Below, piece after piece: positions 29,856 through 54,884 of a stretch of 64,000 nt of DNA. The DNA is from Vicinamibacteria bacterium (GTDB taxonomy: Bacteria > Acidobacteriota > Vicinamibacteria > Vicinamibacterales > JAENWD01). The first letter of the stretch is position 1. Each line of letters opens with the position of its first letter. Under the pieces are notes generated by a model, which saw only the letters and a program-made list of their open reading frames with translations, was not told where the DNA came from and did no database searches. Position numbers and translations under genes: made by a program. Where the stretch lies: contig CAVRDA010000021.1 of assembly GCA_963719755.1 (NCBI GenBank), positions 431,403 to 495,402 on the forward strand, written 5' to 3'.

Positions 29856-31474
29856 ATGAGAAAGACGGTTCGTGCAGGGATTGGCGGCGCGGCGCTTCTG
29901 GCGACGCTTGCGGGATGGAGTCAATGGGTCATCGGCGAGCCGCCGGCCAAGGGCATCGCGCTCTCGCCGATCGGCGTCTACGCAGACCGGACTTTCGACG
30001 AGGGCGCGGTCGAGATCTCCGCGTTCGACCCGGAGAGCAAGCGCGCGTTCCTGACGTTCGCGGGGCAGCCCCGCCTCGATGTCGTGGACCTGTCCGATCC
30101 GACCAATCCGGCCCCGGCCGGGACTATCGACCTCACGCCCTGGGGCGCCGGCGCGCACGCCACGAGCGTGGCGGTGTACGACGGCGTGGTGGCGGTCGCG
30201 GTGCCGCAGGGCGAAGACGACACGGCACCAGGCAAGGTGCTCTTCTTCGACACCGACGGCGTGCTTCTGAGCGAGGTGACCGTCGGCGCGCTGCCCGACA
30301 TGATCACGTTCTCTCCCGAACGGCGAACTCGTGCTCACCGCCAACGAAGGGCAGCCGAATCAGTCGTACACGTTCGACCCGGAAGGCAGCGTCAGCGTGA
30401 TTGACGTCAGCGGGGGAGCGGCGACGCTCACCGACGCCGACGTCACCGACGTGGGATTCTCGGCGTTCAACGGCGCGGCGCTGGACCCGTCCATCCGGAT
30501 CTTCGGTCCTGGCGCCACGGTCGCGGAAGACCTCGAGCCGGAGTACATCGCGATCTCGCACGACTCGAAAACGGCGTGGGTGACGCTGCAGGAGAACAAC
30601 GCCATCGCGACAATCGACCTCAAGTCGAAGACCGTGACCCGACTGGCCGGCCTCGGCTTCAAGGACCACTCGAAGGCTGGCAACGGCCTCGACGGCAGCC
30701 GCGACGACAAGCAGATCGAGATCGTGCCGCAGCCGGTGTGGGGCATGTATCAGCCCGATGCGATCGCGGCGTTCCGGTCGCGCGACACCACCTATCTCGT
30801 GACCGCCAACGAGGGCGACGTGCGCGAGTACGACGGGACTCGAATGCCGCGGGCGAGGAGTCGGTGGAGATCGAGGACATCGCGCTCGACCCGGTGGCGT
30901 TCCCCGAGCGATGCCGCGACAATGAAGCATCGCACGAACGGCGTCGGCCGGCTGAAGGTCACCGCGTTCAACGGCGACACCGACGGCGATGGCGACTTCG
31001 ACCGCCTCTTCACGTTCGGCGGGCGTTCGTTCTCGGTCTGGTCGACGGAAGGGGCGCTGCTCTTCGACAGCGCCGACTCGCTCGAGCAGCTGACGGCCGC
31101 GGCGTTCCCGGCCAACTTCAACGCCAGCAACGACGAACAACACGATGGACGATCGCAGCGACGACAAGGGACCCGAACCCGAGGGCGTGACGGTCGCCTC
31201 GCTCTTCGGGCGCACGTACCTGTTCGTCATGCTCGAGCGCATCGGCGGCGTCGTCGTCTACGACATCGAGAATCCGGCCAAGCCCGAGCTCGTGCAGTAC
31301 ATCAACACGCGAGACTTCTCGGCGGATACCGAAACGGCGGCAGCCGGAGACCTCGGGCCGGAGGCGGCGCGCGTGGTTCCGGCTGAGCTGAGCCCGAACG
31401 GCAAAGCGCTGCTGTTGGTGTCGAACGAAGCCAGCGGCAGCTTCCGGGTGTTCGAGATTGCGCAGGCGAAGTAG
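29856..31474 (+). CDS. choice-of-anchor I / phytase-like beta-propeller secreted protein; four frame breaks (near 30315, 30838, 30905, 31140)
   Basis: Signal peptide, PDMITFSP, LTANEGQP, EPEYIAIS, LQENNAIA, VTANEGD, DDKGPEPEG and LLVSNEASGS are spread over ORFs 29718, 30331, 30576 and 31145. Confidence 0.6.
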
Positions 31475-31554
31475 CTCGGCGGCGGCGCGCAAGATTCTCC
31501 AAGCGCCGCCGCGCGCCGCCGTCCTACGATGGCCTCAGAGCACAGGAGGCAATC

Positions 31555-32034
31555 ATGGCGACTGCGACTGCGAAGACGATGGGCGAGGTGGACGCGCGGG
31601 TGCTGGGGCGGGTTCTCGACGAAGGCTACGGGCCTGGCGCCTGGCACGGCGCGGACATGAAGGCGGCGATTGCCGATGTGACGCCGGAACTGGCGTTCTG
31701 GCGTCCATCCGCGGAGCGACACAACATCGCCGAGATCGCGCTGCATCACGCGTTCTACATCCACTCGGTCCGCGAGAAGCTCTCAGGCGCGACCGCCGAG
31801 CCGTTCGTGCTCGAGGGCGACGACTGGTTTGCGCTCGAGCCGAACGGGCCGCTCGGCTGGCCGGAGATTCTCGAGGTGGTCGAACGCGAGCAGGCCGCGC
31901 TCGTCGCGGCTGCCGCCGGCGATCGGCCCAAGGGCCAGTCAGCCGACGAGCGCTTCGGATCGGTGCTCGGCATCACCTGCCACGCGGTCTATCATGCGGG
32001 GCAAATCCAGCTGCTGAAGAAGCTGCATGGGTAG
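31555..32034 (+). CDS. DinB family protein
   Basis: Intact 159-aa ORF with His-containing helices (IALHHAFY, HAVYHAGQI). SD AGGAGG upstream. Confidence 0.7.
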   Translation: MATATAKTMGEVDARVLGRVLDEGYGPGAWHGADMKAAIADVTPELAFWRPSAERHNIAEIALHHAFYIHSVREKLSGATAEPFVLEGDDWFALEPNGPLGWPEILEVVEREQAALVAAAAGDRPKGQSADERFGSVLGITCHAVYHAGQIQLLKKLHG

Positions 32035-32051
32035 GTCCCTGCCGCGTCTCA

Positions 32052-32092
32052 AGCGATCTGCGAATGCGCAGAGGACGCAGATTCTCTTGCGG
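32052..32092. repeat. CGCAGAT-dialect hairpin between convergent genes
   Basis: ATCTGCG (32056-32062) pairs with CGCAGAT (32076-32082). GCGCAGA lies in the loop. Confidence 0.55.
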
Positions 32093-32116
32093 TGAGTTGC
32101 CCGCCGCTGACGCGAA

Positions 32117-33181
<1,065 letters not shown>

Positions 33182-33218
33182 AACTAGAGAAGATACTGTG
33201 ATCGGGAGGAGAGCGGAA

Positions 33219-33794
33219 ATGGCGGGACTGCTGGAAGCCATCGAGATCAAGCGGAAGATGTATTTCGAGTTCGAGGACGCGCCCTATCACTGCCTCGACG
33301 TGGAGGTATCCAAGCCCACGGCGCGGGGCGGCCAGACGCTGGTCCGGCTGAAGATGCGCAATCTGTTGACCCGGGCGGTGTTCGACCGGACCTTCAAGGC
33401 CGGGGAGAAGTTCCGCGAGCCGGACCTGGAGATGCTTCCGGCGTCGTACCTCTATGCCGACGGCGACGGCCACCATTTCATGGACCAGTCGAGCTTCGAG
33501 ACGCTCACCCTCGGCCCGGAGGCCCTGGGCGACGACCAGCAGCTGCTCTCGGACAACGTCCTCGTGCAGATCCAGACTTACAACGGCCGCCCTATCGGGG
33601 TGCAGCTCCCGGCCGTGGTCGAGCTCGCCGTACGGTCGACGGAGCCCGGCGTCCGCGGCGATACGGCCAGCGGCGGGGTCACCAAGCCGGCCATCCTCGA
33701 GACCGGCCTGGAGATCCGGGTGCCGCTCTTCATCAAGGAAGGCGAGAAGGTGAAGGTCCACACCGAAACCCGGGAATTCGCGGGCCGGGCCTGA
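33219..33794 (+). CDS. efpL: elongation factor P-like protein (EfpL/YeiP type)
   Basis: Intact 191-aa ORF. The loop SKPTARGGQTL resembles the E. coli YeiP loop QSPTARGAATL rather than the EF-P loop KPGKGQA. The C-terminus GEKVKVHTETREFAGRA is YeiP-like. SD GGGAGGAG upstream. Confidence 0.8.
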   Translation: MAGLLEAIEIKRKMYFEFEDAPYHCLDVEVSKPTARGGQTLVRLKMRNLLTRAVFDRTFKAGEKFREPDLEMLPASYLYADGDGHHFMDQSSFETLTLGPEALGDDQQLLSDNVLVQIQTYNGRPIGVQLPAVVELAVRSTEPGVRGDTASGGVTKPAILETGLEIRVPLFIKEGEKVKVHTETREFAGRA

Positions 33795-33815
33795 TAACGT
33801 GGGCAGCCAACCTGC

Positions 33816-34250
33816 ATGAGCCCAGGCATGGACCCTTCACTCGCCGACCTGTGGCGTCAGGTGGCCTGGCTGCTGATCCTGCCTATTCCCATTGCCTCCA
33901 TCAGCTGGACGGTGACCCACGAGGAGATCTTCCGCGAGCTGCGCGAGTACTGCAGCAATCGGAGCCAGCAGTGCAAACGGCTCATGGAGCGGAAGCTCTT
34001 CTACGTGATGACGTGCGAGTACTGCTTCAGCCACTGGGTGGCGCTGGGCGCGGTGCTGCTGACCGGCTACCGGCTGCTGCTTCCCGATTGGCGCGGCGCG
34101 CTCATCGGCTATTTCGCGCTGACGGCCATCGCCAACCTTTACCTGAGCCTGTACGGCCGGCTGCGCGTGGACATCAAGGCGGAACGCGTCCAGATCGCAG
34201 CGGTCGAGGACCAGATCTCGTCGTCGCGCGATGATTTTCGGACAGCTAGG
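33816..34250 (+). CDS. hypothetical membrane protein (3-prime end uncertain; the ORF reads into the next gene without a stop)
   Basis: MSPGMDPSLADLWRQVAWLLILPIPIASISW... contains two CxxC-like pairs (CSNRSQQC, CEYC). Confidence 0.4.
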
Positions 34251-34274
34251 CCATCGTCGGCCGGCGTTCACGTG

Positions 34275-35174
34275 ATGCGTGCGCTGAAGACGATCCTCGA
34301 GCTCTCGAAGCAGGCCCTCCTCGCGGGATGGGAGGACAACGTCCCGCGGATGGGCGCGTCGGTCGCCTACTACACGCTGTTCGCGATCGCGCCGGTGCTG
34401 CTCGTCGCGATCGCGATCGCCGGGACGATCTTCGGACCCGAAGCGGTACGCGGCGAGATCGTCGGTCAACTCGACGGGCTGCTGGGGCGCGACGGCGCCG
34501 CCGCGGTGCAGGCACTGCTCGAGGGGGCGCGCCCGCCGGCAGGGAGGAACCCTGGCCACGGTCGTCGGCACGGTGACCTTCGTGCTCGCGGCGACCGGCG
34601 CGTTCCTCGAACTGCAGGCGGCACTCGACAAGATCTGGCGCGTCGAGCCCGATCCCGGCGCGAACGTCTCGGCGTTCCTCAAGGCCCGCGCTCAATCCTT
34701 CGGACTGGTGGTCGGCATCGGCTTCCTGCTGCTGGTGTCGCTGGCGGTGAACGCGGCGCTCGCCGCGGCCAGCACAGTGGGTCGGTCAGCACGCGACCGC
34801 CCTTCCCATCCTCTGGAACGCCCTCAACATCGTCGTGTCGCTGATCGTCGTCACGCTGCTCTTCGCGATGCTCTTCAAGTTCCTGCCTGACGTCCGCCTG
34901 CACTGGCGCCACGTGCTGGTCGGGGCGCTGGTGACGGCGGTCCTGTTCACCATCGGCAAGCAGGTGATCGGCCTCTATCTCGGCCAGAGCGCCACCGCGT
35001 CCTCGTACGGCGCCGCCGGGTCGGTCATCGTGCTGCTGCATCTGGGTCTACTACTCCGCCCAGATCGTGCTGCTCGGCGCGGAGTTCACGCGGGCCTACA
35101 CGAAGTACCTCGGCTCGCGGCCGAAACCCGAGTCTTTCGCCAAGCGCGACCCGCACGCGGCCGCGAAGCCGTAG
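34275..35174 (+). CDS. YihY/BrkB family membrane protein; three frame breaks (near 34535, 34775, 35040)
   Basis: MRALKTILELSKQALLAGWEDNVPRMGASVAYYTLFAIAPVLL..., continued in ORFs 34573 and 34835 and in a third frame ending WVYYSAQIVLLGAEFTRAY. Confidence 0.7.
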
Positions 35175-35224
35175 CCAGCTCATCAATACGCTTCGGAACC
35201 GTCGCGAGACTGGCTGCGTATACT

Positions 35225-35258
35225 ATCTTGCGTGACAAGATATCTTGTGATATATCAC
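35225..35258 (+). promoter_or_regulatory. two perfect palindromes (ATCTTGcgtgaCAAGAT; GTGATATATCAC) overlapping a -10-like TATATC 6 nt upstream of the padR ATG
   Basis: The sequence reads tatactATCTTGCGTGACAAGATatcttGTGATATATCACtgacATG. Candidate PadR auto-operator and leaderless promoter. Confidence 0.45.
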
Positions 35259-35262
35259 TGAC

Positions 35263-35622
35263 ATGGCGGTTTCCCCGGGACGAGACGACGAGAGGCGAGG
35301 CATCGAGCGGGAGCTCAAGCGCGGGTCGCTGGAGCTGATCGTCCTGCACCTGCTGTCGCCGGGAGAGGCCTACGGCTACGAGATCGTCTCGAAGCTGACC
35401 TCCCAGACCAACGGCGCGCTGGAAGTGACCGACGGAACGCTCTACCCGGTGCTGTACCGGCTCGAGCGCGCCGGCTTCGTGGAAGTCCGGTGGGAGACAC
35501 CGGAGCGCGGCGTGCCGCGCAAGTACTACAGCCTCACGGCGTCCGGCCGCGAAGAGCTGGCACGGCTGACCGGGGAGTGGACGGCCTTTGCAAAGGCAAT
35601 GGCCAAGCTGCTGCGAAGTTGA
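35263..35622 (+). CDS. PadR family transcriptional regulator
   Basis: Intact 119-aa ORF with GYEIVSKL...TDGTLYPVLYRLERAGFV. Confidence 0.85.
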   Translation: MAVSPGRDDERRGIERELKRGSLELIVLHLLSPGEAYGYEIVSKLTSQTNGALEVTDGTLYPVLYRLERAGFVEVRWETPERGVPRKYYSLTASGREELARLTGEWTAFAKAMAKLLRS

Positions 35623-35631
35623 GAGGAGACC

Positions 35632-36228
35632 ATGACGACCACCGCTGATTTCTTCATCAACCGGGTACTGGACGCGATGCCTTCGTCGACGCCGCGGCGT
35701 CAGCAGATTGCGCTGGAGCTGCGCGGCCACATCGAGGAGCGCCTGGCCGCCGGCCTGCCGCTCGACGAGGTCCTGCACCAGTTGGGCGATCCGCGGTCGC
35801 TGGCCGAGTCGTACCTGTCGGCCGTCCCGCTGGTGGCCGGGTCTTTCTGGGCGCGCGCCGTGGCGCGCGTCGTCGACTACGCCGTATCGGTCGCCGTAGT
35901 GGCGCCGTTCGGGGTCGCAGTCTGGCTGACGAGCGACTCGAAGCTCTTTCCCCTCTGGCTCTTCGCGTACATCTTCACCGCCAGCCTGATGATCGCCGCG
36001 TATCCAATCGTCGCCGAATATCGGTACGGCAAGACCTGGGGCAAGCACCTGATGGGCCTGCGCGTCGTCCGCGAATCGGGCGCGAGGATCAGCCTCGGGC
36101 AGTCGATCGTCCGGCAGCTGCCGGTGTTCCTGCAGGTGATCTGGATCGACGCGCTGTTCGCGCTCTTCACCGACAAGAGCCAGCGCGCGTTCGAGCTGCT
36201 GTCGAAAACGCGGGTGGTGAGGGTGTAG
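35632..36228 (+). CDS. PadR-associated membrane protein with a C-terminal RDD domain
   Basis: Intact 198-aa ORF. N-terminal cytoplasmic helix region (IALELRGHIEERLAAG), then RDD-type TM segments (YRYGKTWGKHLMGLRVV). Confidence 0.65.
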   Translation: MTTTADFFINRVLDAMPSSTPRRQQIALELRGHIEERLAAGLPLDEVLHQLGDPRSLAESYLSAVPLVAGSFWARAVARVVDYAVSVAVVAPFGVAVWLTSDSKLFPLWLFAYIFTASLMIAAYPIVAEYRYGKTWGKHLMGLRVVRESGARISLGQSIVRQLPVFLQVIWIDALFALFTDKSQRAFELLSKTRVVRV

Positions 36229-36342
36229 GGTTGTGGGGTTGTAGGGTTGTAGGGTTGTAGGGTTGTAGGTTGTAGGGTTGTAAGGTCGTCAGGGCGCGAA
36301 ATCCACGCCCCTACAACCCCACAACCCAACAACCCACGACCC
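36222..36342. repeat. heptamer/octamer-ladder palindrome, GGGTTGTA dialect, G-quadruplex-capable on both strands
   Basis: GGGTTGT GGGGTTGTA (GGGTTGTA)x3 GGTTGTA GGGTTGTA AGG...GGGCG cgaaatcca CGCCC CTACAACCCC ACAACCC AACAACCC ACGACCC. It lies between TAG 36226-36228 and the minus-gene stop at 36343. Confidence 0.85.
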
Positions 36343-38872
36343 TTATTCGTACCGCAGCGCCATGATCGGGTTGATCTGGCTGGCGCGGCGCGCCGGGATC
36401 AAGCCGGCCGCGGTCGAGACCAGCGTCAGGAGCACGACCGTCGCGATGGCGATGCCCGGATCGTGGGCCTCGATGCCGTAGAGCTGAGACGCGACGTAGC
36501 GGCCAAGTCCCAGGGCAGCCGGGATACCGACTGCGAGGCCGATGACCAGCAGCAGCAGCACCTCCCGCATCACCATCCAGGTCAACTGCGACGGCTGCGC
36601 GCCGAGCGCGAGGCGGATCCCAAGCTCCTTCCGGCGCCGCGCGACGACGAACGCCATCACGCCATAGAGGCCAATCGACGCCAGCAGCGTCGCCAGCAGG
36701 CCGAAGCCGGCCGACAGCAGCGCCACCAGCCGATCGCTCAGCAGCGTCTCGTCCAACTGCCCCTGCAGCGTCTTCAGGCTGTAGACGGGCATTGCCGGAT
36801 CGAGCCGGCGCACCTCGTTGCGAATGAGGCTGTAGGCGCCTGCCGACGACGTCGCAGTGCGCATGTAGATGGCGCTGCTGCCGCGGCCCCAGGCGGGAAT
36901 GAACACCTGGCGGCGGACGCCTTCGCGCGGCCCCTCGTAGAGCGAGTCGGCCACCATCCCGATGATCTCGATGTTCATCTTCGTGTCGGGCCCGTCGCCC
37001 CAGCCAAGCCGCTTGCCGATGGGGCTGGCGCCCTTGAAGAAGTGCCGCGCGAATTTCTGGTTCACGATCGCCACGCGCGATGCAGGTCAGGTTTCGTGTC
37101 GTCGAACTGGTCCCGTCCTTCCGAATCGCGGAAGTCGCGCCCCTCGAGGATGGGGATCTGCATCGTCTTGAAGTAGCCCGGCGACAGGGCGTTCATGAAC
37201 GCCTGCATGTCCTCGCCGTCGCCGGCCTTGTGACCCTCGACCGACATCGTGCTGTCCCATTCGTCGCCGCTCAGGATCGAGACAGAGGCCTGGCCCGCCG
37301 ACTTCACGCCCGGCGCCGACCGGAGGTTCTGGAGCAGGTCGCGATAGAACAGCGCGCCGCGCTCGTCGGTGTAGCCGTTCAGCGCCGGCGAGAGCTGGAA
37401 GGTCACGAGGTTGTCGAGGTCGACGCCCGGATCCGTGGTCCGCAGGTTCTGCAGGCTTCGGACGAACAGGCCGGCGCCGAAGAGCAGGAGGAAGCTGAGC
37501 GCGACTTGCGCGGTGACCAGCCCCTTGCGAAGGAACAGCGACCCGCCGGCTCCCGCGATGGAACCGACCGTGTCCTTCAGCGTCGTCCAGGGGTCGGGCC
37601 GGCTCGCGCGCAACGCCGGCAACAGGCCGAAGACGACGCCGGTCGCCAGGGTGAGAGCGAACGTGAAGCCCGAGGATCCGCAGGTCCGGCTCGGCCTGGA
37701 TCTGCAGCGGGTTGCTCTCTGACGGGATGAGCGCCAGCAGGCCGCGCGTGAGCGCGACGGCGACGAACACGCCGAGCACTCCGCCAATGGCCGAGAGCAG
37801 CAGGCTTTCGACCAGCAGCTGCCGCACCAGGCGGCCCCTGGTCGCGCCGAGCGACAGCCGGACCGCGATCTCGCGCTGGCGCATGAACCCTCGGGCGATG
37901 AGCAGGTTGGCGACGTTGGCGCAGGCGATGAGCAGCACCAGGCCGACCATGCACATCAGGACGACGAGCGCGGTGGAGAAGTCGTTGCGCAGGCTGGAAT
38001 AGCCGATGTCCGCCTTCTCGACGTGCAGCGTCCCCTTCAGGAACTGCTCCTTCGAGTAGGCAGACCAATCCTTGGCCGCCGGCAGCGTCGCTTCGTACTT
38101 CCGGATTTGCGTGAACAGGCCCTGCATCGGCGGCTGAGCGCTTTCCACGGTCTGACCCGGCTTCAGCCGCGCGAACACCTGCACCCAGCGCGAGCGCCGA
38201 TCGTCGGCCCGCATCCAGGTCCATTCGGGCAGCACCACCGGCTTCATCAGGATCGGCACGCGGATCTGCGGCGACCGCGCCGGGTCGAGGCCGTCGAATC
38301 CGGCCGCCGAGACCCCGACGATGGTCATCGGGTAGTTGTTGATCTGCACTTTCTTGCCGATGACGCCGGGGTCGCGGGCGAAGCGCGACACCCAGTAGTC
38401 GTACGAGAGGACAGCGACGGGGTGGCCGTTGTAGACCTGGTCGTCTTCCTTCGAGCTGAGCACGCGCCCGATGGCGGGCCTGACGCCCAGCATCGAGAAG
38501 TAGTTGCCCGACACCATCTCGGCATCGAGCCGCTCGGTCTGGTTGTCGACCGCAAACGACACCGAGACCAGCCGGCGGGCGATGACCTGCGAGAGCGGCG
38601 CCGCCTTCTGCTGGTAGTCCTGGTAGATGGGATACGAGTGCATCCGCGATCCCATGTTGCTGCCGTTGTGGTTGCCGCGCTGGATGAGCATCACCAGCTC
38701 TTCCGGGGCGCGCACGGGCAGCTTCCTCAGCAGGATCTGGTCGATCAGCGTGAAGATCGCCGTATTGGCGCCGATGCCGAGTCCCAGCGACAGCGTCGCG
38801 ACGATGGCAAAGAGCGGGCTGCGATCGCAGGCCGCGGAGCGCGAAGCGGAGGTCGGCCAGAAGGGAAGTCAT
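36343..38872 (-). CDS. ADOP-family duplicated MacB/FtsX-type permease (no adjacent padR); three frame breaks (near 38815, 37690, 37080)
   Basis: MTSLLADLRFALRGLRSQP..GIGANTAIF N-terminus and two FtsX-type modules (ACANVANLLIARG...; ...GIRLALGAQ...). ORFs 37577, 37087, 37062 and 36343 join here. Confidence 0.8.
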
Positions 38873-39084
38873 AGGTGTATTGGACGAAAGCCGCGCGACA
38901 GACGTTGGCTGGCCCGGCAATGGGTCGGTGGTGCCACGCTCGAAGGAACGAAGGCTGGCGCCACGGAACGAGTTCCGATCTCTCCGGCAGGGTAGTGCTA
39001 AATTTTCAGCATGTCAACCTGACGCACGCGTCAGACCCCTTGGGCCCCGCCTGTCCGGCGGGCGGGTGATAATACGGGACAGGC

Positions 39085-40351
39085 ATGTCATTCGATTCAA
39101 AGGGATCTGCCCGACGCGAGCCGCGCAGGGTCGTCGTCACGGGCGTGGGCTTGGTGTCTCCGGTCGGCATCGGCACGGAGGAGACCTGGCAGGCCGTGCT
39201 TGCCGGCCGATCGGGCATCGCGCCGCATCACGTTGTTTGACGCCTCGCGCCACAACGCGCGCTTTGCCGGCGAGGTGAAGGACTTCGACCCGACGAGGTG
39301 GATCGACCGCAAGGACGTCAAGAAGTGCGGCCGCTTCATCCAGTTCGCCATTGCGGCGACGTCGATGGCGGTGGAGGCAAGCGGGCTCAAGGTCGAACCA
39401 GCGAACGCGGCCCGGGTCGGGGTGATCATCGGCAGCGGCATCGGCGGGTTCGAGGTCATCGAACGCGAGCACCGCGTCCTGCTGGAACGCGGCCCCGACC
39501 GCGTCTCGCCGTTTTTCATCCTGTCGTCGATCGTGAACCTGGCTGCCGGGCAGGTGTCGGTCCGCCTGGGTGCCAAAGGACCGAACTCCGCGGTGGCCAC
39601 GGCCTGCACGACCGGGGCCCATGCCATCGGCGATGCGTACCGGCTCATCCAGGGAGGCTGGGCGGACGCGATGGTCTGCGGCGGCACCGAGGCCAGCATC
39701 ACGCCGCTCGGCATTGCCGGCTTCGCCTCGATGCGGGCGCTTTCGACGCGCAACGACGATCCGGCTCGCGCCAGCCGCCCGTGGGACCAGGATCGCGACG
39801 GCTTCGTCGTCGGGGAAGGTGCGGGCATCCTGATTCTCGAGGCCCGCGACCACGCCGAAGAACGCGGCGCCACCGTGCTCGCGGAGCTGATCGGCTACGG
39901 CATGAGCGCGGACGCGCACCACCTCACCGCGCCCCCCGAGGATGGCGACGGGGTCGGCCGCGTGATGGCGGCGACGCTCGAAGACGCCGGGCTCTCGCCC
40001 GGCGACGTGCAATACGTCAACGCGCACGCCACCTCGACGCCGCTCGGCGACAAGGCGGAAGCCACCGCGATTTGCCGTGTGTTCGGCAGCCACGCCGCAG
40101 GCATGCTCGTCAGCTCGACCAAGTCGATGACGGGCCACCTGCTCGGCGGCGCCGGCGCGCTCGAAGCTGGCCTGACCGTGCTGTCGCTCCGCGATCAGAT
40201 CGCGCCGCCGACGATCAACCTCGATCGGCAGGACGCCGACAACACGCTGGACCTCGTGCCGCACACCGCCAGGCCGCTCGCGATCACGCACGCGATGACC
40301 AACTCGTTCGGGTTCGGCGGCACCAACGCGAGTTTGATCTTCAAGCGCTGA
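39085..40351 (+). CDS. fabF: beta-ketoacyl-ACP synthase II; 1-nt insertion near 39222
   Basis: RRVVVTGVGLVSPVG N-terminus from ATG 39085, then ORF 39200..40351 with ATACTTGAH, HGTSTP-like HATSTPLGD and GFGGTNASL. Confidence 0.9.
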
Positions 40352-40354
40352 AAC

Positions 40355-40519
40355 GTGCTGCGTGCTTTGTGCACCGTGCCACGTGCGGTGCTGCGTGCTT
40401 CGTGCTTCGTGCACGTGCGTTCTCCGTGCAGTGCCCGTGCGGTGCTGCGGGCACGAAGCACCGCACGCGGCACGTGGCACCAGCACCGCACGCGCACGCA
40501 GCACCGCACGCAGCACGTG
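40355..40519. repeat. heptamer-ladder palindrome, GTGCTGC dialect (about 95-nt left arm, about 70-nt right arm) with nested perfect stems
   Basis: cgtgcggtgct (40436-40446) pairs with agcaccgcacg (40457-40467). cgtgcggtgctgcg (40382-40395) pairs with cgcagcaccgcacg (40497-40510). It lies between the fabF stop and the convergent stop at 40529. Confidence 0.9.
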
Positions 40520-40528
40520 GCGAACGCC

Positions 40529-41095
40529 TTACGTGCGCAACGCCGCCAGCGCGCCGGTCCACCGGCGCAGCTCGTCCAGCATCACGATGGCGGACTTCTC
40601 CTGGGCCGCGGTCGCCTTGAACGCGCCGGAGGCTTTGTCGATCTGCTGGCTGAACATCGGCAGCGCCACCGCTTCGACGATCGGCACGATCTTCACCGCG
40701 GCAAGCAGCGTCTTGGTCATCTGCGCCGCGCGCAAGCCGCCGGAGATGCCGCCGTAGCTCACCAGCCCCGCGGCCTTGTAGTTCCACTCGGTGTACAGGT
40801 GGTCGATCGCGTTCACCAGCGCCGGCGGCGAGCTGTAGTTGTATTCCGGCGTGACGATGGCGAATGCGTCGAGCGCCGAGATCGCGGCGCTCCATTGCCT
40901 GGTCTTCTCGCTCTCGGTACTGATGCAGCCGCGGGTGCACCGGCTCCTCGAGCAGCGGGAGCGCCCACTCCTTGAGATCGACCCTTCGACCTCGAAGCCG
41001 CCGTGCGTTCGCGCGACTTCGATGAACCAGTCGGCGACCGGCCCGCCGGCGCGGCCCTTACGGACGCTGGCGATGATGACTCCAAGACGGGGCAT
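40529..41095 (-). CDS. NADPH-dependent FMN reductase family protein; two compensating frame shifts (near 40983 and 40917)
   Basis: MPRLGVIIASVRKGR...; TPEYNYSSPPALVNAIDHLY. The segment VDLKEWALPLLEEPVHPRLHQY is readable only in another frame. SD AAGGAG upstream. Confidence 0.75.
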   Translation of the reverse strand: MPRLGVIIASVRKGRAGGPVADWFIEVARTHGGFEVEGSISRSGRSRCSRSRCTRGCISTESEKTRQWSAAISALDAFAIVTPEYNYSSPPALVNAIDHLYTEWNYKAAGLVSYGGISGGLRAAQMTKTLLAAVKIVPIVEAVALPMFSQQIDKASGAFKATAAQEKSAIVMLDELRRWTGALAALRT

Positions 41096-41114
41096 GCAGA
41101 CTCCTTCGATGCGC

Positions 41115-42605
<1,491 letters not shown>

Positions 42606-42722
42606 CTGGTCTCTCCTCGCGATTGATCGTTTGAAGAGTCTACAGGTTCGAGCCCGTACGCGCCGCCACACCTTCAGGGCGGATATCGGTTCGCTGTCAC
42701 GCTGCGCTTCGCGTGTCCTCAA

Positions 42723-42929
42723 GGGATCCGCAGATGACGCCGATTGCGCAGATTTCTTGCTGGAGATTGCTCGATCAGGTACCTCGCGGCGGCTCGGAAA
42801 CAGCGAACCCGGGCGACACCGGCCGCGAATGCGGCCGGTCGGCGAGACGGGCCGAGGCGTGCGCCGCGGGGTCGCCCGGGTTCTGGCGCCCAGGGAATCT
42901 GCGTTCATCCGCGTAATCTGCGGATCGAT
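42723..42929. repeat. about 207-bp nested inverted-repeat element (MITE-like or structured RNA), CGCAGAT dialect at both ends
   Basis: Ends: GATCCGCAGAT (42725-42735) pairs with ATCTGCGGATC (42916-42926), and CGCAGATT (42747) with AATCTGCG (42896). Inner perfect 13-bp IR GAACCCGGGCGAC (42805-42817) / GTCGCCCGGGTTC (42871-42883). Core hairpin CCGGCCGC-gaat-GCGGCCGG (42819-42838). Confidence 0.75.
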
Positions 42930-42972
42930 TCGCCGCCGCACACCGACGCAGTGCCGGAACTGAAGTTCCGGC

Positions 42973-45424
42973 CTACTCCGACCGCAGCGCCTGAATCACG
43001 TCGACCCGCGAGGCGCGCGCCGCCGGCATCAGCGACGCGACGACCGCGGCGGACACGAGCACGAGCGCCGCGCCGATGACCGGCATCATCCCGGGCAGCC
43101 GGACGTCGGTGATGTAGGCGCCGACGAGCCGCGCCAGCAAGACACCGCCCAGGACGCCAGCGACGATGCCGATGCCGGCGATGACCACGCCTTCGCCGAG
43201 GACTCGCGTCAGCAGATGGCGCGGCTCCGACCCGATCGCCAGGCGCACGCCGAACTCGCGGGTGCGCGCGCTCACCGAGAACGCCAGGACGCCGGCGACG
43301 CCGACCACGGCGATGAGCAGCGCGACGCCGGCGAAGACGCCGAACACCAGCGCGTTGAGGCGGTCGGGCGCGAGCACCTCGGCGCGCACGTCCTCGAGCG
43401 TCGCCGCCTGTTCCACGGGCTGATCGGCCGACAGGTCGCGGATGACGCGCGTGATCGGCCGCACGAGCGAGTACGGGTCGGTCCGGGTGTGCACGAACAG
43501 CCGGCCGCCGCCGATTTCCTGCTCGAATGGGTGATAGACGCTCATCGCCGGTCCAGGCACGACGTTCTCGTCGTCCACGTCGGCGACGACGCCGATGATG
43601 CGCCGCGGCCCCGTGCTGACGTCGATGAACTTCATCACCGGGTCGGTCCACATGAAGTTGCGGTTCAGCGCGTCCTGGGTGGCGAACATCCGCTGCGCCA
43701 GGCTCTGGCTGACGATGACGACCTTCTCGGCGTCGCGGCGATCCGCGTCGGTGAAGTCGCGGCCCGCGATGATCGGCACGCCGAGCGAGGCGAAGAACCC
43801 TGGCGACACCGTGCGGAAGCGCGCGCGGGGATCCTCTTCGCCGCCCGCCTTGGCGTAGCCCTCGGCGGAAAACTGGAATCCCGGTCCGAACGTGCCCGCG
43901 TCGCGCCACGGCACGACGGTGCCGACGGCCACCCGCTCCACGCCCGGCAGCTCGCCGATCCGCCGCAGGATCTCGCGATAGAAAGCGGCGGTCTGCTCCG
44001 GCGGTCGCGAGTACGACACGATCGGCACGTTGATCGCGAGGACGTTCTGCGTGTCGAAGCCGGTTGGCGCCGACTGCAGCGCCAGCAGCGTCGTCAGCAG
44101 CATCCCCGCGCCGGCGAGCAGGACGAACGACGCCGCGATCTGCGTGACCGCGAAGACGCGCAGCCGCCGGTTGGTGCCCGAGGTGAGCCGCACGCTGCCG
44201 TTCGACAGGCTGATGCCGCTCGACGCGTCGGCGTTCGGCAGCCGCGGCACGAACGCCAGCAGCACCGACGCCGTCAAAGCCAGGGCGACGCCGACCCACA
44301 GCAGCGTCGAATCCACCGTGAGGTCGAGCGCTCGCACCGAGAATCGCGAGGCGTACTGCGCCAGGATCGCGACCATCGGCCGCGCGATGAGCACGCCGAG
44401 GACGGCCCCGGCGCCGCAGAGCAGGAGGCTTTCCGCCAGCAGCGTCCGGCGCAGCGCGCCGGTGCTCGCGCCCAGCGCCGCACGCACGGCCAGCTCGCCC
44501 TCGCGCCGGACCGAGCGCGCCAGGATCAGGTTCGCGACGTTCGAGCAGGCGATGACGAACACCAGCGCCGACGCCGCCAGCAGCACGAGCAGCACGGTTC
44601 GCGCTGGCGAGATGATCTGGTCGCGGAGCCGGGTCACGTCGATAGCGAAGTTGGCGTCCTTCGGGTACGACTCGCGGTGCTGCGGCGACGATCGAGGAGT
44701 GGATCGTCCGCAGCTCGGCGCGCGCGGCCTCGATGTCCGCGCCGGGAGCCAGCCGGCCGAAGAGCTCCGTCATCCGGTGCACGCGCCCGTGCACCATCGT
44801 CGCGTCCAGGTGGTGCGGGCTGGTGACGACGTTGGAGATGATCTCGGTCTGCGACGGATATGGCACCGACGGCTCGAGGACGCCGACGATCGTCGCGGAC
44901 CGATCGCCGAGGCGGATGTTCCTGCCGATCAGGCTCGCGTCGCTGGCCAGGGTCGTGGACCAGAAGCGATGCGTCAGGACCACGGCGCCGGCGGCCTGCG
45001 CGCCGTCGTCTCTGGGGCCGAGCAGGCGGCCGAGCACCGGCTTGAGGCCCATCACGTCGAAGTACGAGCCGCCGACGACGCCGGCCCTGACGACGCGCGG
45101 CTCGCCCAGGCCCACCATCGTGAAGTCGATGGTCGAGAAGTCGCCGAAGGCCGCAAGCGTCCGGGCGCGCGAGCGCAGGTCGTTGAGCTCGGGCACCGAG
45201 AACGCGGCGTTGTCGGCGCCGATGCCGCGCGCGCTCTGGCGGATGTAGACCAGGCGGTCCTCGTCCTCGTTGACCAGCGGCCGCAGCAGCACGCCGCGGA
45301 CGACGCTGAAGATGGCCGCGTTGGCGCCGATGCCGAGCGCGAGCGTCACGATGACCGTGATGGCCAGACCCTTGACGCGGGCCAGGGACCGGAGGGCGAA
45401 GCGGAAGTCGGTCAGTATCGTCAT
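42973..45424 (-). CDS. ADOP-family duplicated MacB/FtsX-type permease (no adjacent padR); frame broken near 44680
   Basis: [40 protein letters not shown]-terminus from ATG 45424, then ORF 42973..44637. The span is 2452 nt. Confidence 0.85.
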
Positions 45425-45435
45425 ACGACTCTCAT

Positions 45436-45463
45436 TACCCGTCAACGCGGGTATTAGTACCCG
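45436..45463 (-). promoter_or_regulatory. three hexamer half-sites TACCCG-N6-CGGGTA-N4-TACCCG in the ADOP leader/promoter
   Basis: The minus strand reads CGGGTActaaTACCCGcgttgaCGGGTAatgagagtcgtATG. It could be alternative 6-bp hairpins or an operator. Confidence 0.35.
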
Positions 45464-45476
45464 AAAAATTATGTCA

Positions 45477-45670
45477 GTGCCGCGTGCTTCGTGCCATGTG
45501 CCTCGTCCGTGCTTCGTGCCTCGTGCCGCGTCCGGTGCTTCGTGCCTGGTCCCTTCGTGCAGAGCCGCCGCCCCGGGGACCGCAGCCGGCACGCGGCCCG
45601 CACCCAGCACCCGGCCCATGACACCGCACGCGGCACCGCACCCAGCACGCGGCACCAAGCACTCAGCACC
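45477..45670. repeat. heptamer-ladder palindrome, GTGCTTC dialect (about 85-nt arms) in a divergent intergenic region
   Basis: GTGCCGC GTGCTTC GTGCCAT GTGCCTC GTCC GTGCTTC GTGCCTC GTGCCGC ... then GCAC GCGGCCC GCAC CCAGCAC ... GCGGCAC CGCAC CCAGCAC GCGGCAC CAAGCAC TCAGCAC. Confidence 0.85.
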
Positions 45671-45751
45671 TGCCAGGGTGCTCCCTCTACTTGTGTTGTC
45701 GAATGGCACCCGCCCGAATCGACACCGCCAGACGCCGGTCGCAAAGATTTC

Positions 45752-45759
45752 TCTAGAAT
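45752..45759 (+). promoter_or_regulatory. TCTAGAAT -10-like element upstream of the PQQ dehydrogenase gene (with GGAGG SD downstream)
   Basis: The sequence reads gatttcTCTAGAATggcgggcGGAGGcgcacgccgggATG. Confidence 0.35.
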
Positions 45760-45782
45760 GGCGGGCGGAGGCGCACGCCGGG

Positions 45783-47748
45783 ATGCGGAGCAGCGTTCGA
45801 GTCGCGTTGGTGCTGGTGGCCCTGTCAGCGGCCAGCTCTGCTTTTGCCCAGGCGCCAGCGGCGGGCAAACGGGTCTTCGAGACGGTGTGCGCCCGTTGCC
45901 ATGGGGCCGACGGCAAGGGCGGCGACATGGGACCGCCCATCGCCCTTCGCCTGGCCAACCTCGACGACAAGCAGCTCGCGGCGCTGATCCGGGACGGCCG
46001 GCCGACCAAGGGCATGCCGCCGACGCCCCTGACGCCGGTCCGTTCGCGCGGCCTCGTCTCCCACCTCCGCGACCTCCAGCGGCGGGCCGAGTTCGTTCCG
46101 CCGAGACGGCTCGAGGCACAGCTGACCGACGGCACGGCACTCGCCGGCATCGTCCTCAACGAGGGCTACTCCGACGTGCAGGTGCGCACCGACGACAACC
46201 ACGTGCGGCTGCTCCGTCGCGACGGCGAGCGGTTCAGGCCCGTGACCTCGAGCACCGACTGGCCGACGTACAACGGCGACCCGGGCGGCAACCGGCACAC
46301 CGCGCTGACCCAGATCGACAAGCAGACGGTCGCGCGGCTGGCGCCGCGGTGGATGTATTCGCTCGACGACACCGGCTTGCTGCAGGTGACGCCAGTGGTG
46401 GTCGGCGGAATCATGTATGTGACGGCGGCCAACGAGTGCGTCGCGCTCGACGCCGGCACGGGACGCCGGATCTGGCAGTACAAGCGGCCGCGGACCAAGG
46501 GCGTGGCCGGCGGCGGCGCCAACCGCGGCGTCGCCGTGGCCGGCGATCGCGTGTTCATGGTCACCGACCACGCGCATCTCGTGGCGCTGAATCGCTTCAC
46601 CGGCGAGGTGCTCTGGGACGTCGTGATGGACGACTGGCGGAAGAACTACGCTGCCTCGTCGGCCCCGTTGGTCGCCGGAGACCTCGTGCTGTCCGGCGTC
46701 TCGGGCGGCGAGCACGGCGCGAACGGGTTCCTCGCCGCGTTCGACCAGGAGACGGGCCGCGAGGTGTGGCGCTTCTGGACGGTGCCGAAGCCTGGCGAGC
46801 CGGGCTCGGAGACGTGGGCCGGCAAGGACATCTACCACGGCGGCGCTCCCACCTGGTTCACCGGCAGCTACGACGCCGGGCTCGACACGGTGTACTGGCC
46901 GACCGGCAATCCGGCGAAGGAGTACAACGGCGACGATCGCCAGGGCGACAATCTCTACGCCAGCTGCATCCTCGCCCTCGATCGGAAGACCGGCCGGCTC
47001 AAATGGCATTACCAGTTCACGCCGCACGATCTGTGGGACTGGGACGCGACGCAGACCTCCGTCGTCGTGGACGCGGAGTGGGACGGGCAGACGCGTCCGC
47101 TGCTGCTCCACGCCAATCGCAACGGCTTCTTCTACGTGTTCGACCGGCGTGACGGGACGCGGCTCCTCACACGCCCCTTCGTGAAGAACCTGACGTGGGC
47201 CACCGGCGTCGGCGACGATGGGCGCCCGGTGAGGGTGGCGGGCCAGGAGCCGTCGCCGGAAGGCACGAAGGTCTGCCCGTCGCAGGACGGCGCGACGAAC
47301 TGGTTCTCGCCGTCGTTCAATCCGGCCACCGGCCTCTACTACGTGCAGACGTTCGAGAAGTGCAGCATCTACACGAAGCGCTCTGGGGATGTCTGGCAGC
47401 CGGGCAAGCCCTACCTCGGCGGATCGCAGCGGACCGCGCCAGAGCCCGGTGCCGCAGCGCATCCTGCGCGCCATCGACATCAGGACGGGCGCGATCACCT
47501 GGGAACTGCCGCAGCCCGGCCCGGCGTACTCCTGGGGCGGAACGCTCAGCACCGCGAGCGGCCTGGTGATCGTCGCGGAGGAAGGCGGCGCGCTGATGGC
47601 GGCCGACGCCTCCACCGGCACGCCGCTCTGGAGCTTTCAGACGAATCAGGTCTGGCGCGCGTCGCCGATGACCTACATGTTCGACGGCCGGCAGTTCATC
47701 GCCATCGCGTCCGGCAGCAACATCCTCGCGTTCGCCCTTCAGGACTGA
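45783..47748 (+). CDS. PQQ-dependent dehydrogenase with an N-terminal cytochrome c domain; frame broken near 47445
   Basis: Signal peptide, CARCHG heme motif, DWPTYNGDPGGNRHTAL and repeated propeller W-motifs. The C-terminus is in ORF 47389..47748. Confidence 0.8.
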
Positions 47749-47761
47749 ACGCGGGACCGCG

Positions 47762-48502
47762 CTAGAAATTCACGCGGACCCCGAACGAGATCGGCAGCGT
47801 CCAGCGCGAGCTCTTCGAGTTGATGTCCTCGAGACCGGTGTCCCTGAAGGCGTCGATCGTCGACAGGCCGCTGTTGTAGCGAACGCCGATCTGCCCGTTC
47901 ACGTCGACCTTGTCGGTCAAGGCGTAGAGGGCGCCGCCGCCGAAACCCAGCGTCAACGCTGCCGTGCCATCGTAGAAGTCGGTCTGGTGACGGACGACGC
48001 CGGCGTTCGGCGCGGCGAACACGGCTTGGATTTCGTCGATGATCGCGACGCCGAACGTGCCAGAGGCATACGGCCGCAGCTTCTCGCGGCGTGGCGCGAA
48101 GTAGTGGCGGTAGACGCCTTCGATGTTGAACGCGTTGTAATCATCAAAGGTCCCGACCAGCTCGGTCCCGGCCACTGTTCCGACTTCGACGACGTCCGAG
48201 CCAACTTTCTGGTAGCTGAACTGGGCGCGGATCTCGTTGATCTCGTCGATCATGTAGCCGGCGCTGAACGACCACACCACGCCGGTGCCGTAGACCTCGT
48301 CGAAAGGCTGCGGCAGCACGATGGTCGGGAGCCCGTCGAGCGTCCCGATTGCGCCGGTCAGGAAGTCGCCGCTGAGGCTCACGTCGAAGCCGACCGAGGC
48401 TTCCGCGTTCCACGAGGAGTCGTTGGTCTGGGCAAGGGCCGAAGGCGCCGCGGCGAGCCAGACGACGATGGCCGCCGCGGCGGTCCAGTACCTACCGCGC
48501 AC
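47762..48502 (-). CDS. outer-membrane beta-barrel protein
   Basis: Intact 246-aa ORF with signal peptide ...APSALAQ, alternating strands and C-terminal ...GVRVNF. Confidence 0.65.
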   Translation of the reverse strand: MRGRYWTAAAAIVVWLAAAPSALAQTNDSSWNAEASVGFDVSLSGDFLTGAIGTLDGLPTIVLPQPFDEVYGTGVVWSFSAGYMIDEINEIRAQFSYQKVGSDVVEVGTVAGTELVGTFDDYNAFNIEGVYRHYFAPRREKLRPYASGTFGVAIIDEIQAVFAAPNAGVVRHQTDFYDGTAALTLGFGGGALYALTDKVDVNGQIGVRYNSGLSTIDAFRDTGLEDINSKSSRWTLPISFGVRVNF

Positions 48503-49059
48503 CGGATGCTTCCTCGAACGACACCAGCATGGCTTCCGTCCACGTGATGTCGACCTTGTCGCCGACCTTCACCTTCTCCAGCGCCTTCTTGTCTTCCACC
48601 TTCGAGCTGTACTTCCAGCCGTTCGGGCCTTCGAAGCTGATCGATGGCGTCTTGAGGTTGATGTCGGTGATGGTCGCCGTGATCGTGCGCTGTTCGGATA
48701 CGGTGCCCGCCGGCCGCGATCCCGGGGCCTTCTCCGACTCCGGCGGCGGCGCTGTCCTGGGGCTTGTCGCCAGGCGCCTGGACGCGGAGCACGACCGTCT
48801 CGTAGTAGCGCGCCTTCAGCTTGTCGCCGACCTTGATGCTCGAGAACCGCTCGGCGGCCGTCGGCACGTACATGCGTTCGTAGGTCCCGTCAGGCTTCTT
48901 CAGCACGAGGACACGGCTTGCGGATTCGATGGCTTCGACCGTCGCCTCCACTGTCTTCACTTCGCCGGTCAACGTCTTGCTCTGCGCCGCGGCCGGGGTG
49001 CTGGTCATTGCCGCCAGCCCGGCCGCCGCAGCCAGACTCGCCAGGAACATCTGTCTCAT
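48492..49059 (-). CDS. hypothetical secreted protein with an internally duplicated domain; frame broken at about 48710-48760
   Basis: Signal peptide MRQMFLASLAAAAGLAAMTSTPAAAQ. Two similar halves end in KVGDKLKARYYE and KVGDKVDITWTE. SD GGAGGA upstream. An 11-nt overlap with the downstream OMP gene. Confidence 0.5.
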
Positions 49060-49193
49060 CGCATCCTCCAGTGATCGTTGCATCTCATTGTGGCCAGCCC
49101 AGCCTCTCGCGAACATTAGACCTTGGTCCAACGGCCGCTGAGGCTGAGTTTGCACCTGCGTCTGCCACAATGTGCGTTGCGAGAGGATAGCGC

Positions 49194-50438
49194 ATGGAGG
49201 GGTCGATGGCGCAACGGTCACGGACGGGTTCATGGCATCTGGCGATGGCGCTGGCGGCGATCGCCGTGACTGCAGCCGGCGCGCAGCAGGGCGACGAGCC
49301 GCCGCCGAAGCTCACCGCATCAGCGATTCTTCCGGCAGCCACGATCAATGGGCCGCACTACACGGTCGATCCGCCCGTCAAGGCCGAAGGGTATCTGTAC
49401 GAGTTCACGCTGACGTCCGACTTCGGGCCGTTCACCGCGAACGGCCGTTCCCAGCTTGCGACGCGCATCGAGGAGATCCGTGCCATTGCCGCGCTGCAGG
49501 ACGTGTCGAAGAGCGAGGTGTTCCTGAAGTCGGCCGGCGGCGCCATCGTCAACATCGGCAAGGGCGCGGCGAGCGCCGTCACGAACCCGACAGAGACGGC
49601 GAAGGGCATCGGCGCCGGCGTGAAGCGGTTCGGGGTGAATCTCGGACGCGCGAGCAAGCGGGCGGTCACGAGCGAAGGCGGCGCGGACACCGGCGAGTCG
49701 GGCGCGGAAAGCGCGGCGTCGACGGTGCTCGGCGTCTCGTCGGCCATGCGCCGGTGGGCGCAGAAGGTCGGCGCGGACCCGTACACCACCAACATCACGC
49801 TCCGGGAGGCGTTGAAGAGCATTGCCGAGGTAGATGCCGCGGGTTCGATCGTGACGAAGGTCGTCGTTCCCATACCGCAGGTCATCGGCGCGGTCGCGAC
49901 CGTCGGCGACCTGGTGTGGTCGAAGGACCCCGAAGAGCTGAGGAAGCTGAACGAGCAGCGTGCCGCCGGCCTCGGCGTCTCGAAGCAGTCTTCTGACGCC
50001 TTCTTCCGGAACGGCTGGTACACCCTCACGCTGCAGACCAGGTTCGTCGCCGCGCTGGACGCGGTGAAGGCGCCCGGTGCCGCCGACTACCTCGAGACGG
50101 CAACCGCCGCCGACACCGAGGGCGAAGCGCATTTCTTCGTCGAGAGCGCCGAGATGCTTCGGCTGTTCCACACGAAGCACGGTGTGGAGCGTCTGCTGCC
50201 CGATTCGCGGGCCGTCGTCGCGGCGTCGAAGGGGCGCGCCGCGCTGCTGGCGCCGCTCGACTACGTCCGGGCCACGCGGGCGTCGACGGAGGTGCTGGAA
50301 GAGATTGCCGCACGGTCCCGGAAGGAGCTTGGCGCGACGCGCCTGGAGCTGGTGCTGACCGGTCGCGCGACCGAGCGGGCAAAGAAAGAGGCGAAGGCCA
50401 TCGGCTGGACCGTCGTCGAGTCGCAGCCGGCGCGCTGA
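49194..50438 (+). CDS. hypothetical secreted protein (no family recognised)
   Basis: Intact 414-aa ORF with a signal-like N-terminus WHLAMALAAIAVTAAGAQQ. Confidence 0.55.
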   Translation: MEGSMAQRSRTGSWHLAMALAAIAVTAAGAQQGDEPPPKLTASAILPAATINGPHYTVDPPVKAEGYLYEFTLTSDFGPFTANGRSQLATRIEEIRAIAALQDVSKSEVFLKSAGGAIVNIGKGAASAVTNPTETAKGIGAGVKRFGVNLGRASKRAVTSEGGADTGESGAESAASTVLGVSSAMRRWAQKVGADPYTTNITLREALKSIAEVDAAGSIVTKVVVPIPQVIGAVATVGDLVWSKDPEELRKLNEQRAAGLGVSKQSSDAFFRNGWYTLTLQTRFVAALDAVKAPGAADYLETATAADTEGEAHFFVESAEMLRLFHTKHGVERLLPDSRAVVAASKGRAALLAPLDYVRATRASTEVLEEIAARSRKELGATRLELVLTGRATERAKKEAKAIGWTVVESQPAR

Positions 50439-51621: not shown

Positions 51622-51684
51622 GTTCACTCGGGCCGAGGCTTGTCGGCGAGGGGGTCGCGCGACCAGGGCGTGCGCACAGCGCGG

Positions 51685-54743: not shown

Positions 54744-54757
54744 GCAAGGGGAGGACG

Positions 54758-54879
54758 TGTAGGGATTGTAGGGTTGTAGGTTGTGAGGTTGTAGGGTGGC
54801 CGTTGTAGGGTTGTGCCGTAGGTAGGGAGATACCCCAGTCCTCCCTACAACCCCACGACCCTCACAACCCCACAACCCT
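54758..54879. repeat. heptamer/octamer-ladder palindrome, GGGTTGTA dialect
   Basis: TGTAGGGAT TGTAGGGT TGTAGGT TGTGAGGT TGTAGGG..TTGTAGGGT... with core GTAGGGAG (54822-54829) pairing CTCCCTAC (54841-54848), then ACAACCCCACGACCCTCACAACCCCACAACCC. Confidence 0.85.
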
Positions 54880-54884
54880 CTTCC

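Follow-up and report, generated by a model that had tools for sequence, protein, structure and literature searches.

A hypervariable GTGC-repeat palindrome between two divergent genes of a Vicinamibacteria genome: a candidate tolerated, lineage-specific gain

A divergent promoter region in a Vicinamibacteria genome contains a hypervariable repeat palindrome that was gained within a narrow lineage. The element is a 194-base imperfect, hairpin-forming palindrome of 7-base GTGC repeats located at 45477-45670 of the window, the 64,000-nucleotide stretch of DNA analysed here. With about even confidence, we interpret this copy as a tolerated, lineage-specific gain of a REP-like repeat palindrome upstream of both core promoters; it does not look like a dedicated regulator. 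By analogy, the family to which it belongs resembles an acidobacterial counterpart of the inverted heptamer pairs of Xanthomonas, and its genomic behaviour resembles that of REP/BIME sequences.

The element is composed of two complementary heptamer ladders flanking a degenerate centre. GTGCNNN heptamers, interrupted by one 5-nt unit (GTCCG), make up the 5' arm (45477-45559), where the higher-order period is 25-26 nt; in the 3' arm (45586-45669) the complementary NNNGCAC units form a ladder whose higher-order period is 19 nt. The apical region between them (45560-45585) contains CCCCGGGG. TRF detects period 7 in both arms. The motif GTGCN3GTGCN3GTGC occurs 18 times in the window against an expectation of 0.06, with all occurrences confined to 19176-19279, 40355-40480 and 45477-45669. 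GTGC arrays of the element are found on the plus strand at 45477-45526 and on the minus strand at 45638-45669, and its two termini are CAGTGCC... and ...GCACCTG. Complementarity between the arms amounts to 71-81% over 37-38 nt. RNA folding of the whole element predicts one long imperfect hairpin on either strand, with z-scores of -4.0 (plus) and -5.2 (minus) and none of 200 shuffles folding as well; the ladder palindrome described at this position in the original prediction is thus borne out by its arms, its motif excess and its fold. The window contains five ladder hairpins, of which this one is the least perfect. The DNA fold of the palindrome is weakly better than that of shuffles (z -2.1), which makes a cruciform-based DNA role unlikely, and this candidate was rejected. 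No T-run follows either arm and no terminator-like site was found at the element. A search of the window against Rfam at gathering score gave no match, a search of 45380-45830 found none even at E<=1, and a literature search on the repeat strings themselves recovered only unrelated eukaryotic papers.

The element separates a permease gene from a quinoprotein dehydrogenase gene and ends neither of the flanking mRNAs. Its position between two start codons (45424 on the minus strand and 45783 on the plus strand) had been claimed from the sequence and is supported by domain matches on both sides. From this position it follows that the element ends neither flanking mRNA and that a pure terminator role is inadequate, as had also been argued. 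The left-hand gene (42973-45424, minus strand) encodes an ADOP-family duplicated permease with a MacB_PCD domain and is frameshifted near 44683; its intact ortholog in the close strain L001 (816 aa) scores as TIGR03434 ADOP. Relative to this ortholog, residues 1-247 are encoded at 45424-44684 and residues 248-816 at 44682-42976, with the shift located in 44680-44686. The frameshifted gene is either a pseudogene or the product of a long-read assembly error; similar frame splits are found in several genes of L127, a second close strain. Immediately after the ADOP stop, the window carries a 27-nt segment with the hairpin CCGGAAC-TGAA-GTTCCGG (ca. 42944-42970) that is absent in L001, where another insertion of ca. 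57 nt is found near the stop. The right-hand gene (45783-47765, plus strand) encodes a cytochrome-c-fused PQQ-type (quinoprotein) dehydrogenase with Cytochrome_CBB3 and PQQ domains. Its cytochrome c domain is N-terminal and its top NCBIfam match is TIGR04528, 'acido-empty-quinoprotein group A', below cut-off. Exact-protein look-ups returned no match for the window quinoprotein or for protein P0121. An open reading frame that runs through the element into this gene (45270..47765) exists and is spurious, as suspected from the start, given that orthologs start at the aligned ATG.

Candidate promoters, called on both sides as consensus matches only, place the element upstream of the quinoprotein promoter and in contact with the ADOP promoter. 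The putative ADOP promoter (45468-45497, minus strand) comprises an extended -10, TGACATAAT (45476-45468), that abuts the left edge of the element and a -35, ATGGCA (45497-45492), that lies within the left arm. It is the sole sigma-70-like match on the ADOP side and one of two matches in 20 kb. The candidate -10 reads CACAAT in L127, where the ADOP-side match falls below threshold. The candidate -10 of the quinoprotein gene is TAGAAT (45754-45759, plus strand). Relatives share a TAnAnT hexamer 17-24 nt before the quinoprotein ATG (TACAAT in L002 and L123, TATACT in L124 and L126), and this conservation puts a gap of 84 nt between the element and the quinoprotein promoter to its right. The original prediction had put both promoters outside the element, which holds for the quinoprotein side and fails for the candidate promoter on the ADOP side. 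A small inverted repeat, TACCCG-N6-CGGGTA (45436-45453), separates the candidate -10 of the ADOP gene from its start codon; present as TACCC-N8-GGGTA in L127, this repeat could represent an operator or a leader hairpin. No promoter-like site reading through the element was found. Canonical terminators consisting of a hairpin and a T-run are not above chance in 30000-49999 (4 against 8.0 expected from shuffles) and are, if anything, rarer.

Two further GTGC ladder palindromes in the window belong to the same family. They are located at 40354-40521 and 19170-19282, both between convergent genes. Shared strings had been claimed for all three copies; GTGCTTCGTGC and GCACGCGGCAC are exact in the 40355 copy, and the 19163 copy contains one-mismatch variants. 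Alignment of the arms of the three elements and of an allele from a second strain, all in G-rich orientation, revealed a common layout that consists, from the outer edge inwards, of about four heptamers, GTGCG (GTCCG once) and GTGCTNN heptamers. The 5-nt unit in this layout explains the TRF higher-order periods of 12, 19, 26 and 33 nt (5+7k). The module string is found in five window arms, in L001 and L127 and in the acidobacterial loci L090, L104 and L112 among the matches listed, and in none of the ca. 115 remaining loci that have four or more GTGC units, again among the matches listed. Because their arms share layout and module string, the three GTGC copies are homologous and represent one family and not independent slippage products. 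They are not alignable end to end, with a best match of 84% over 57 nt, and their lengths range from 113 to 194 bp. The two arms of the 40354 element, and likewise those of the 45477 element, carry the irregular 5-nt unit as mirror images at corresponding positions, which indicates that the arms are related by inversion. This mirroring led us to reject the independent building of arms by repeat addition at DNA ends.

Ladders in the window are written in at least three unit dialects, and three unit sequences are found within 2 kb at L046. The second dialect of the window consists of GGGTTGTA octamer ladder palindromes at 36212-36343 and 54757-54880. One of them is located between convergent genes and the other 6 nt past a stop codon and ca. 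60 nt upstream of a PadR-ADOP operon. The 5' arms of the octamer ladders contain four or more GGG tracts and, judging from these tracts, could form G-quadruplexes. A single non-palindromic array of CAACCTGAT 9-mers and AACCCGACGT 10-mers is found in another divergent region (1152-1249). Judged from its sequence, the minus-strand gene that the array directly precedes (start 1097-1099) resembles one for an ABC-transporter ATPase; TATATAT follows the array. Ladders occupy three of ca. 14 convergent, one of ca. 15 divergent and one of ca. 28 co-directional junctions in the window.

The element is present at the same site in close strains and absent from more distant relatives. For the close comparison we used the contigs L001 (JGI metagenome) and L127 (ENA/NCBI, 544 kb), both ca. 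97% identical to the window. All three strains carry the element with the same outer ends, at lengths of 194 bp (window), ca. 220 bp (L001) and ca. 125 bp (L127), and all alleles fold as hairpins. The L001 allele contains one extra 26-nt block in the right arm, and the L127 allele has lost ca. 77 nt comprising the centre and the inner arms. The single substitution checked, an A to C change in the right arm of L127 (CCAAG to CCCAG), weakens pairing, and the left arm shows no compensating change. Allele-length differences between assemblies could partly be assembly artefacts; L127, and probably the window too, contains frameshifts typical of long-read assemblies. More distant dehydrogenase orthologs are carried by five loci (L002, L123-L126), and none of these has the element. 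In these relatives the quinoprotein is 75-82% identical, and the divergent permease (or PadR-permease)/quinoprotein pair is kept in four of the five loci, with ladder-free spacers of 78-178 bp. The short ladder-free spacers imply that the element is a lineage-specific gain into a compact divergent promoter region. The orthologous-junction comparison called for in the original prediction therefore yields same-site alleles in close strains and no ladder in distant ones, a distribution that makes simple insertion the best fit among the three roles then offered. Insertion as a mobile, MITE-like unit finds no such agreement, with neither a target-site duplication nor a fixed length observed for the element. 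A metagenome scan with the 25-nt higher-order unit, which covered sequences other than the L001 contig, gave two chance matches only, both inside a coding region, and thus neither paralogous nor further orthologous copies.

Gene-end spacers of the same strains are resized or replaced as whole units. At the 40354 site (window 40352-40528), located between ketoacyl-synthase and flavodoxin-like genes, the three strains possess three unrelated spacers bounded by the same pair of stop codons: the window has a GTGC ladder of 168 bp, L001 has 23 bp (L001:2571-2593) and L127 has 115 bp of GCGAGCG-type direct repeats (L127:4240-4354). The replacement shows no remnant of a simple insertion, and no target-site duplication is seen at the edges of the 40354 or the 45477 element. 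The last codons of the flavodoxin-like gene also differ among the three strains. At the 36212 site, the same stop codons and identical flanks enclose an octamer ladder in the window (36229-36342) and a decamer ladder palindrome, GTTTCGTCAG.../...AACCCGACGT, in L127 (L127:60-230). The decamer dialect is common to two unrelated loci, this L127 ladder and the window array at 1152-1249, whose units match the right arm of the L127 palindrome. The octamer element at 54757 varies between strains in unit number and sequence. The convergent spacer at 51622-51684 differs completely, with 63 bp in the window and 144 bp with two hairpins in L001 (L001:13750-13894); L127 carries a 2.5-kb insertion at this site (L127:15441-17923) with genes for a GntR-family regulator, a Band_7 protein and an unknown protein. 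All convergent spacers comparable among the three ca. 97% identical strains are remodelled or replaced, and the replacement alleles are too different to be assembly artefacts. Resizing and swapping at these sites indicate that gene-end spacers behave like exchangeable hairpin cassettes.

Ladder palindromes constitute a wider class that is concentrated at gene ends and found in many soil phyla. To sample this class, we scanned for four GTGC heptamers in one genome per species, a sample and not a census, and most of the matches listed were due to chance or were single arrays that form no palindrome. With a TRF-based detector run on the window and on loci L001-L127, we identified ca. 40 inverted tandem-repeat palindromes among the matches listed. 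Their hosts, among the matches listed, include Acidobacteriota, Thermoanaerobaculia, Chloroflexota, Bacteroidota, Gemmatimonadota and others, and their units, usually 7 nt long but 8-10 nt in some, comprise many unrelated sequences. The plus-then-minus array order of the 45477 element is also found in L096, L101, L113, L127 and others. Of 41 ladder palindromes among the matches listed, 38 have a 5' arm richer in G than in C, whichever strand is read, and so do 18 of the 19 that were not selected by sequence. Roughly 27 of the 41 elements among the matches listed begin between -13 and +16 nt from a real stop codon, a distance measured to genes with a clear coding signature (codon-position GC) within context statistics that derive from a home-made gene caller and a biased sample.

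Divergent placement, which the original prediction treated as exceptional, recurs in the wider class. Four further divergent copies with Pfam domains on both flanks are present among the matches listed (L013, L014, L093 and L030), and in Xanthomonas 7-8% of the analogous arrays lie between divergent ORFs, where they are under-represented (Rehm et al., 2015, PMC4692102). The divergent pgi and tal genes of an acidobacterial MAG (L013:4500-4609) are separated by a 111-bp spacer, which a 75-bp (AGTGCAG)n ladder fills except for 17 nt on each side. The -10-like hexamers TAAACT and TACGAT are each located 7 nt upstream of an ATG at this locus, a geometry that suggests leaderless mRNAs. The other three copies separate a thioredoxin-like gene from a lysA-like gene (L014), a PMT_2 gene from rpiB (L093) and a DUF2085 gene from a DUF2142 gene (L030).

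Together these observations are consistent with a family of gene-end hairpins, one copy of which was gained in a promoter region. Most members of the wider class begin within ca. 16 nt of a stop codon, and the elements change fast through block gain or loss in one arm, central deletion and whole-spacer replacement between identical stop codons. At gene ends, the transcribed long hairpin would represent a 3'-end structure, serving as a terminator or an exonuclease block. Ladder arms can pair in many registers, so hairpin formation would survive changes in unit number. The 45477 copy was gained in the ancestor of the three close strains, in a divergent promoter region for which relatives need no more than 78-178 bp. 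It lies upstream of the quinoprotein core promoter, and would reach the likely ADOP -10 and occupy the -35 position, where the extended -10 would make a good -35 dispensable. Given this arrangement, the copy is probably outside both mRNAs. It is most likely a tolerated, neutral or mildly modulating insertion, and any effect may consist of blocking stray transcription between the two units and pushing the two promoters apart. Persistence in three strains with conserved outer ends counts against mere tolerance and could reflect a function. The four divergent copies elsewhere, with L013 extending to within 17 nt of both starts, imply that ladders coexist with promoters and may contribute to them. 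Also against it, neutral slippage explains neither the strong G-rich-5'-arm polarity (38 of 41, among the matches listed) nor the conserved module.

The same polarity and modularity could point to a more specific reading, which we consider unlikely. Ladder palindromes would then represent a distinct multi-phylum class of replaceable hairpin cassettes that a dedicated mechanism creates or copies, inserting them into and removing them from inter-stop spacers and promoter regions about as fast as strains diverge, with the 45477 copy supplying or reshaping the upstream half of a promoter. Units of 7-10 nt, a G-rich 5' arm on both strands and modules of about four units would characterize such a class, and structure-targeted copying or hairpin-templated repair may be the mechanism.

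A functional role as a bidirectional transcription block or insulator is unlikely. The RNA hairpin would stop transcripts that come into the shared upstream region from either side, whether antisense, read-through or fired the wrong way from a symmetric -10, and would keep the divergent units independent. The hairpin does form on both strands, and on inspection the ADOP -10 region reads AATTAT on the plus strand (45467-45472) and could fire into the element; concentration of the class at gene ends, where termination is needed, and retention of the element in three strains are likewise in keeping with a block. However, neither arm leads into a T-run, the copy is the least perfect ladder hairpin of the five, the L127 substitution weakens pairing in the right arm with no compensation in the left, and relatives possess spacers of 78-178 bp without any such element.

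That the element is a non-autonomous mobile element of REPIN or MITE type is quite unlikely. As a selfish insertion, it would have been copied by a transposase encoded elsewhere, preferably into hairpins or spacers, and the module common to the copies, the presence, absence and replacement observed at the same junction in close strains and the appearance of one decamer dialect at two unrelated loci would all be expected of such an element. Its copies nevertheless show no target-site duplications, carry neither a GTAG or CGTC tag nor defined terminal inverted repeats, and all differ from one another in the number and order of their units; end-to-end alignment fails, and no transposase is seen nearby. 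Replacement without the remnant of a simple insertion is also at odds with transposition.

A protein-binding array is very unlikely. By analogy with known heptad-binding regulators, a nucleoid-associated or ribbon-helix-helix-type protein might polymerise on contiguous 7-bp units and regulate or organise the divergent promoters, and the 7-bp register, the conserved 4-bp core, the modules of about four units and the location directly upstream of both promoters would suit it. Each of the many unrelated units present within single genomes, such as those of L046, would however need its own protein, and most copies are located at gene ends and not at promoters. Least probable of all is a transcribed 5'-leader hairpin or repeat-number switch for ADOP or quinoprotein expression, for which repeat number does vary among the three strains and the L013 ladder must overlap promoters or leaders, but the variable part of the 45477 element is central with constant promoter-side edges, the conserved quinoprotein -10 lies 84 nt to its right and no promoter-like site reads through it.

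By itself the 45477 copy is probably of small consequence, and more interest attaches to how the class as a whole behaves. Among close soil Acidobacteriota, short-unit repeat palindromes seem to be a main source of intergenic variation. If the hairpins act as 3'-end structures where hairpin-plus-T-run terminators are not above chance, they bear on operon annotation and on the reading of metatranscriptomes. Ladder palindromes also mislead ORF callers and may confuse assemblers. The combination of a 7-nt unit, a G-rich 5' arm, a four-unit module without G-quadruplex and cassette swapping hints at an undescribed mechanism.

The closest known counterparts of the GTGC ladders are the GGGAATC heptamer arrays of Xanthomonas, which form 70-75 convergent inverted pairs per genome (Rehm et al., 2015, PMC4692102). 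These arrays are mostly located within ca. 28 nt of the upstream ORF, 16% of them lie between convergent ORFs and most are transcribed; their length varies between species, they show no link to IS elements and no function has been established for them (PMC4692102). An earlier proposal cited in the same study attributes heptamer over-representation to polymerase slippage. Similar to the Xanthomonas pairs, the GTGC family consists of tandem 7-nt units with a conserved 4-nt core, typically about four in number, arranged as two nearby convergent arrays on opposite strands, the G-rich array being the 5' one whichever strand is read, and copy number at a locus varies in related genomes, as seen in the 194, ca. 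220 and ca. 125 bp alleles. In contrast to the Xanthomonas units, GTGCNNN units contain no GGG runs, and the four or more GGG expected of a G-quadruplex are thus missing; the GGGTTGTA octamer dialect (36212, 54757) would contain them. Since GTGC units cannot form G-quadruplexes, the rationale offered for Xanthomonas, including the four-unit preference, is not transferable. The GTGC family further differs in its host, an acidobacterium that the ADOP family and the names of homologs place probably in the Vicinamibacterales, in its longer arms (84-92 nt), in its higher-order periods of 5+7k nt and in the whole-spacer replacement documented between strains.

Likeness to the REP, BIME and REPIN sequences of Proteobacteria is found in genomic behaviour. 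Both are dispersed extragenic palindromes located mostly past stop codons, between convergent or co-directional genes, both form long hairpins from inverted doublets and both vary between strains. Proposed roles of REP, BIME and REPIN sequences include mRNA 3'-end protection and termination. An arm of the GTGC family is, however, a tandem array and not a self-palindromic unit of 20-40 nt, its 26-33 nt modules are not self-complementary, copies are not near-identical (84% over 57 nt) and the GTAG or CGTC tag that marks REP sequences (PMC3733652) is absent from the ends of the 45477 element. MITEs are distinguished by terminal inverted repeats with target-site duplication and by a fixed length, and the 45477 family has none of these.

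Intergenic 7-nt arrays of variable copy number are also known from several phyla as cyanobacterial STRRs and the TAACTGA repeats of Beggiatoaceae (MacGregor, 2015, PMC4679880). Those repeats are direct arrays found mostly upstream of starts, whereas the 45477 family consists of inverted hairpin pairs. Canonical intrinsic terminators share with the family a GC-rich hairpin and, for most members, a location at gene 3' ends, but the ladders lack a U-tract, their stems are several times longer and the 45477 copy is downstream of no gene. The omega repressor of pSM19035, a ribbon-helix-helix protein, acts on uninterrupted runs of 7-bp heptads, direct as well as inverted, that are located upstream of promoters. 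The geometry of the 45477 array, with contiguous 7-bp units upstream of promoters, fits such heptad operators. Overall, inverted heptamer-ladder pairs are already known from Xanthomonas and are poorly understood, and the GTGC ladder family is a variant of them.
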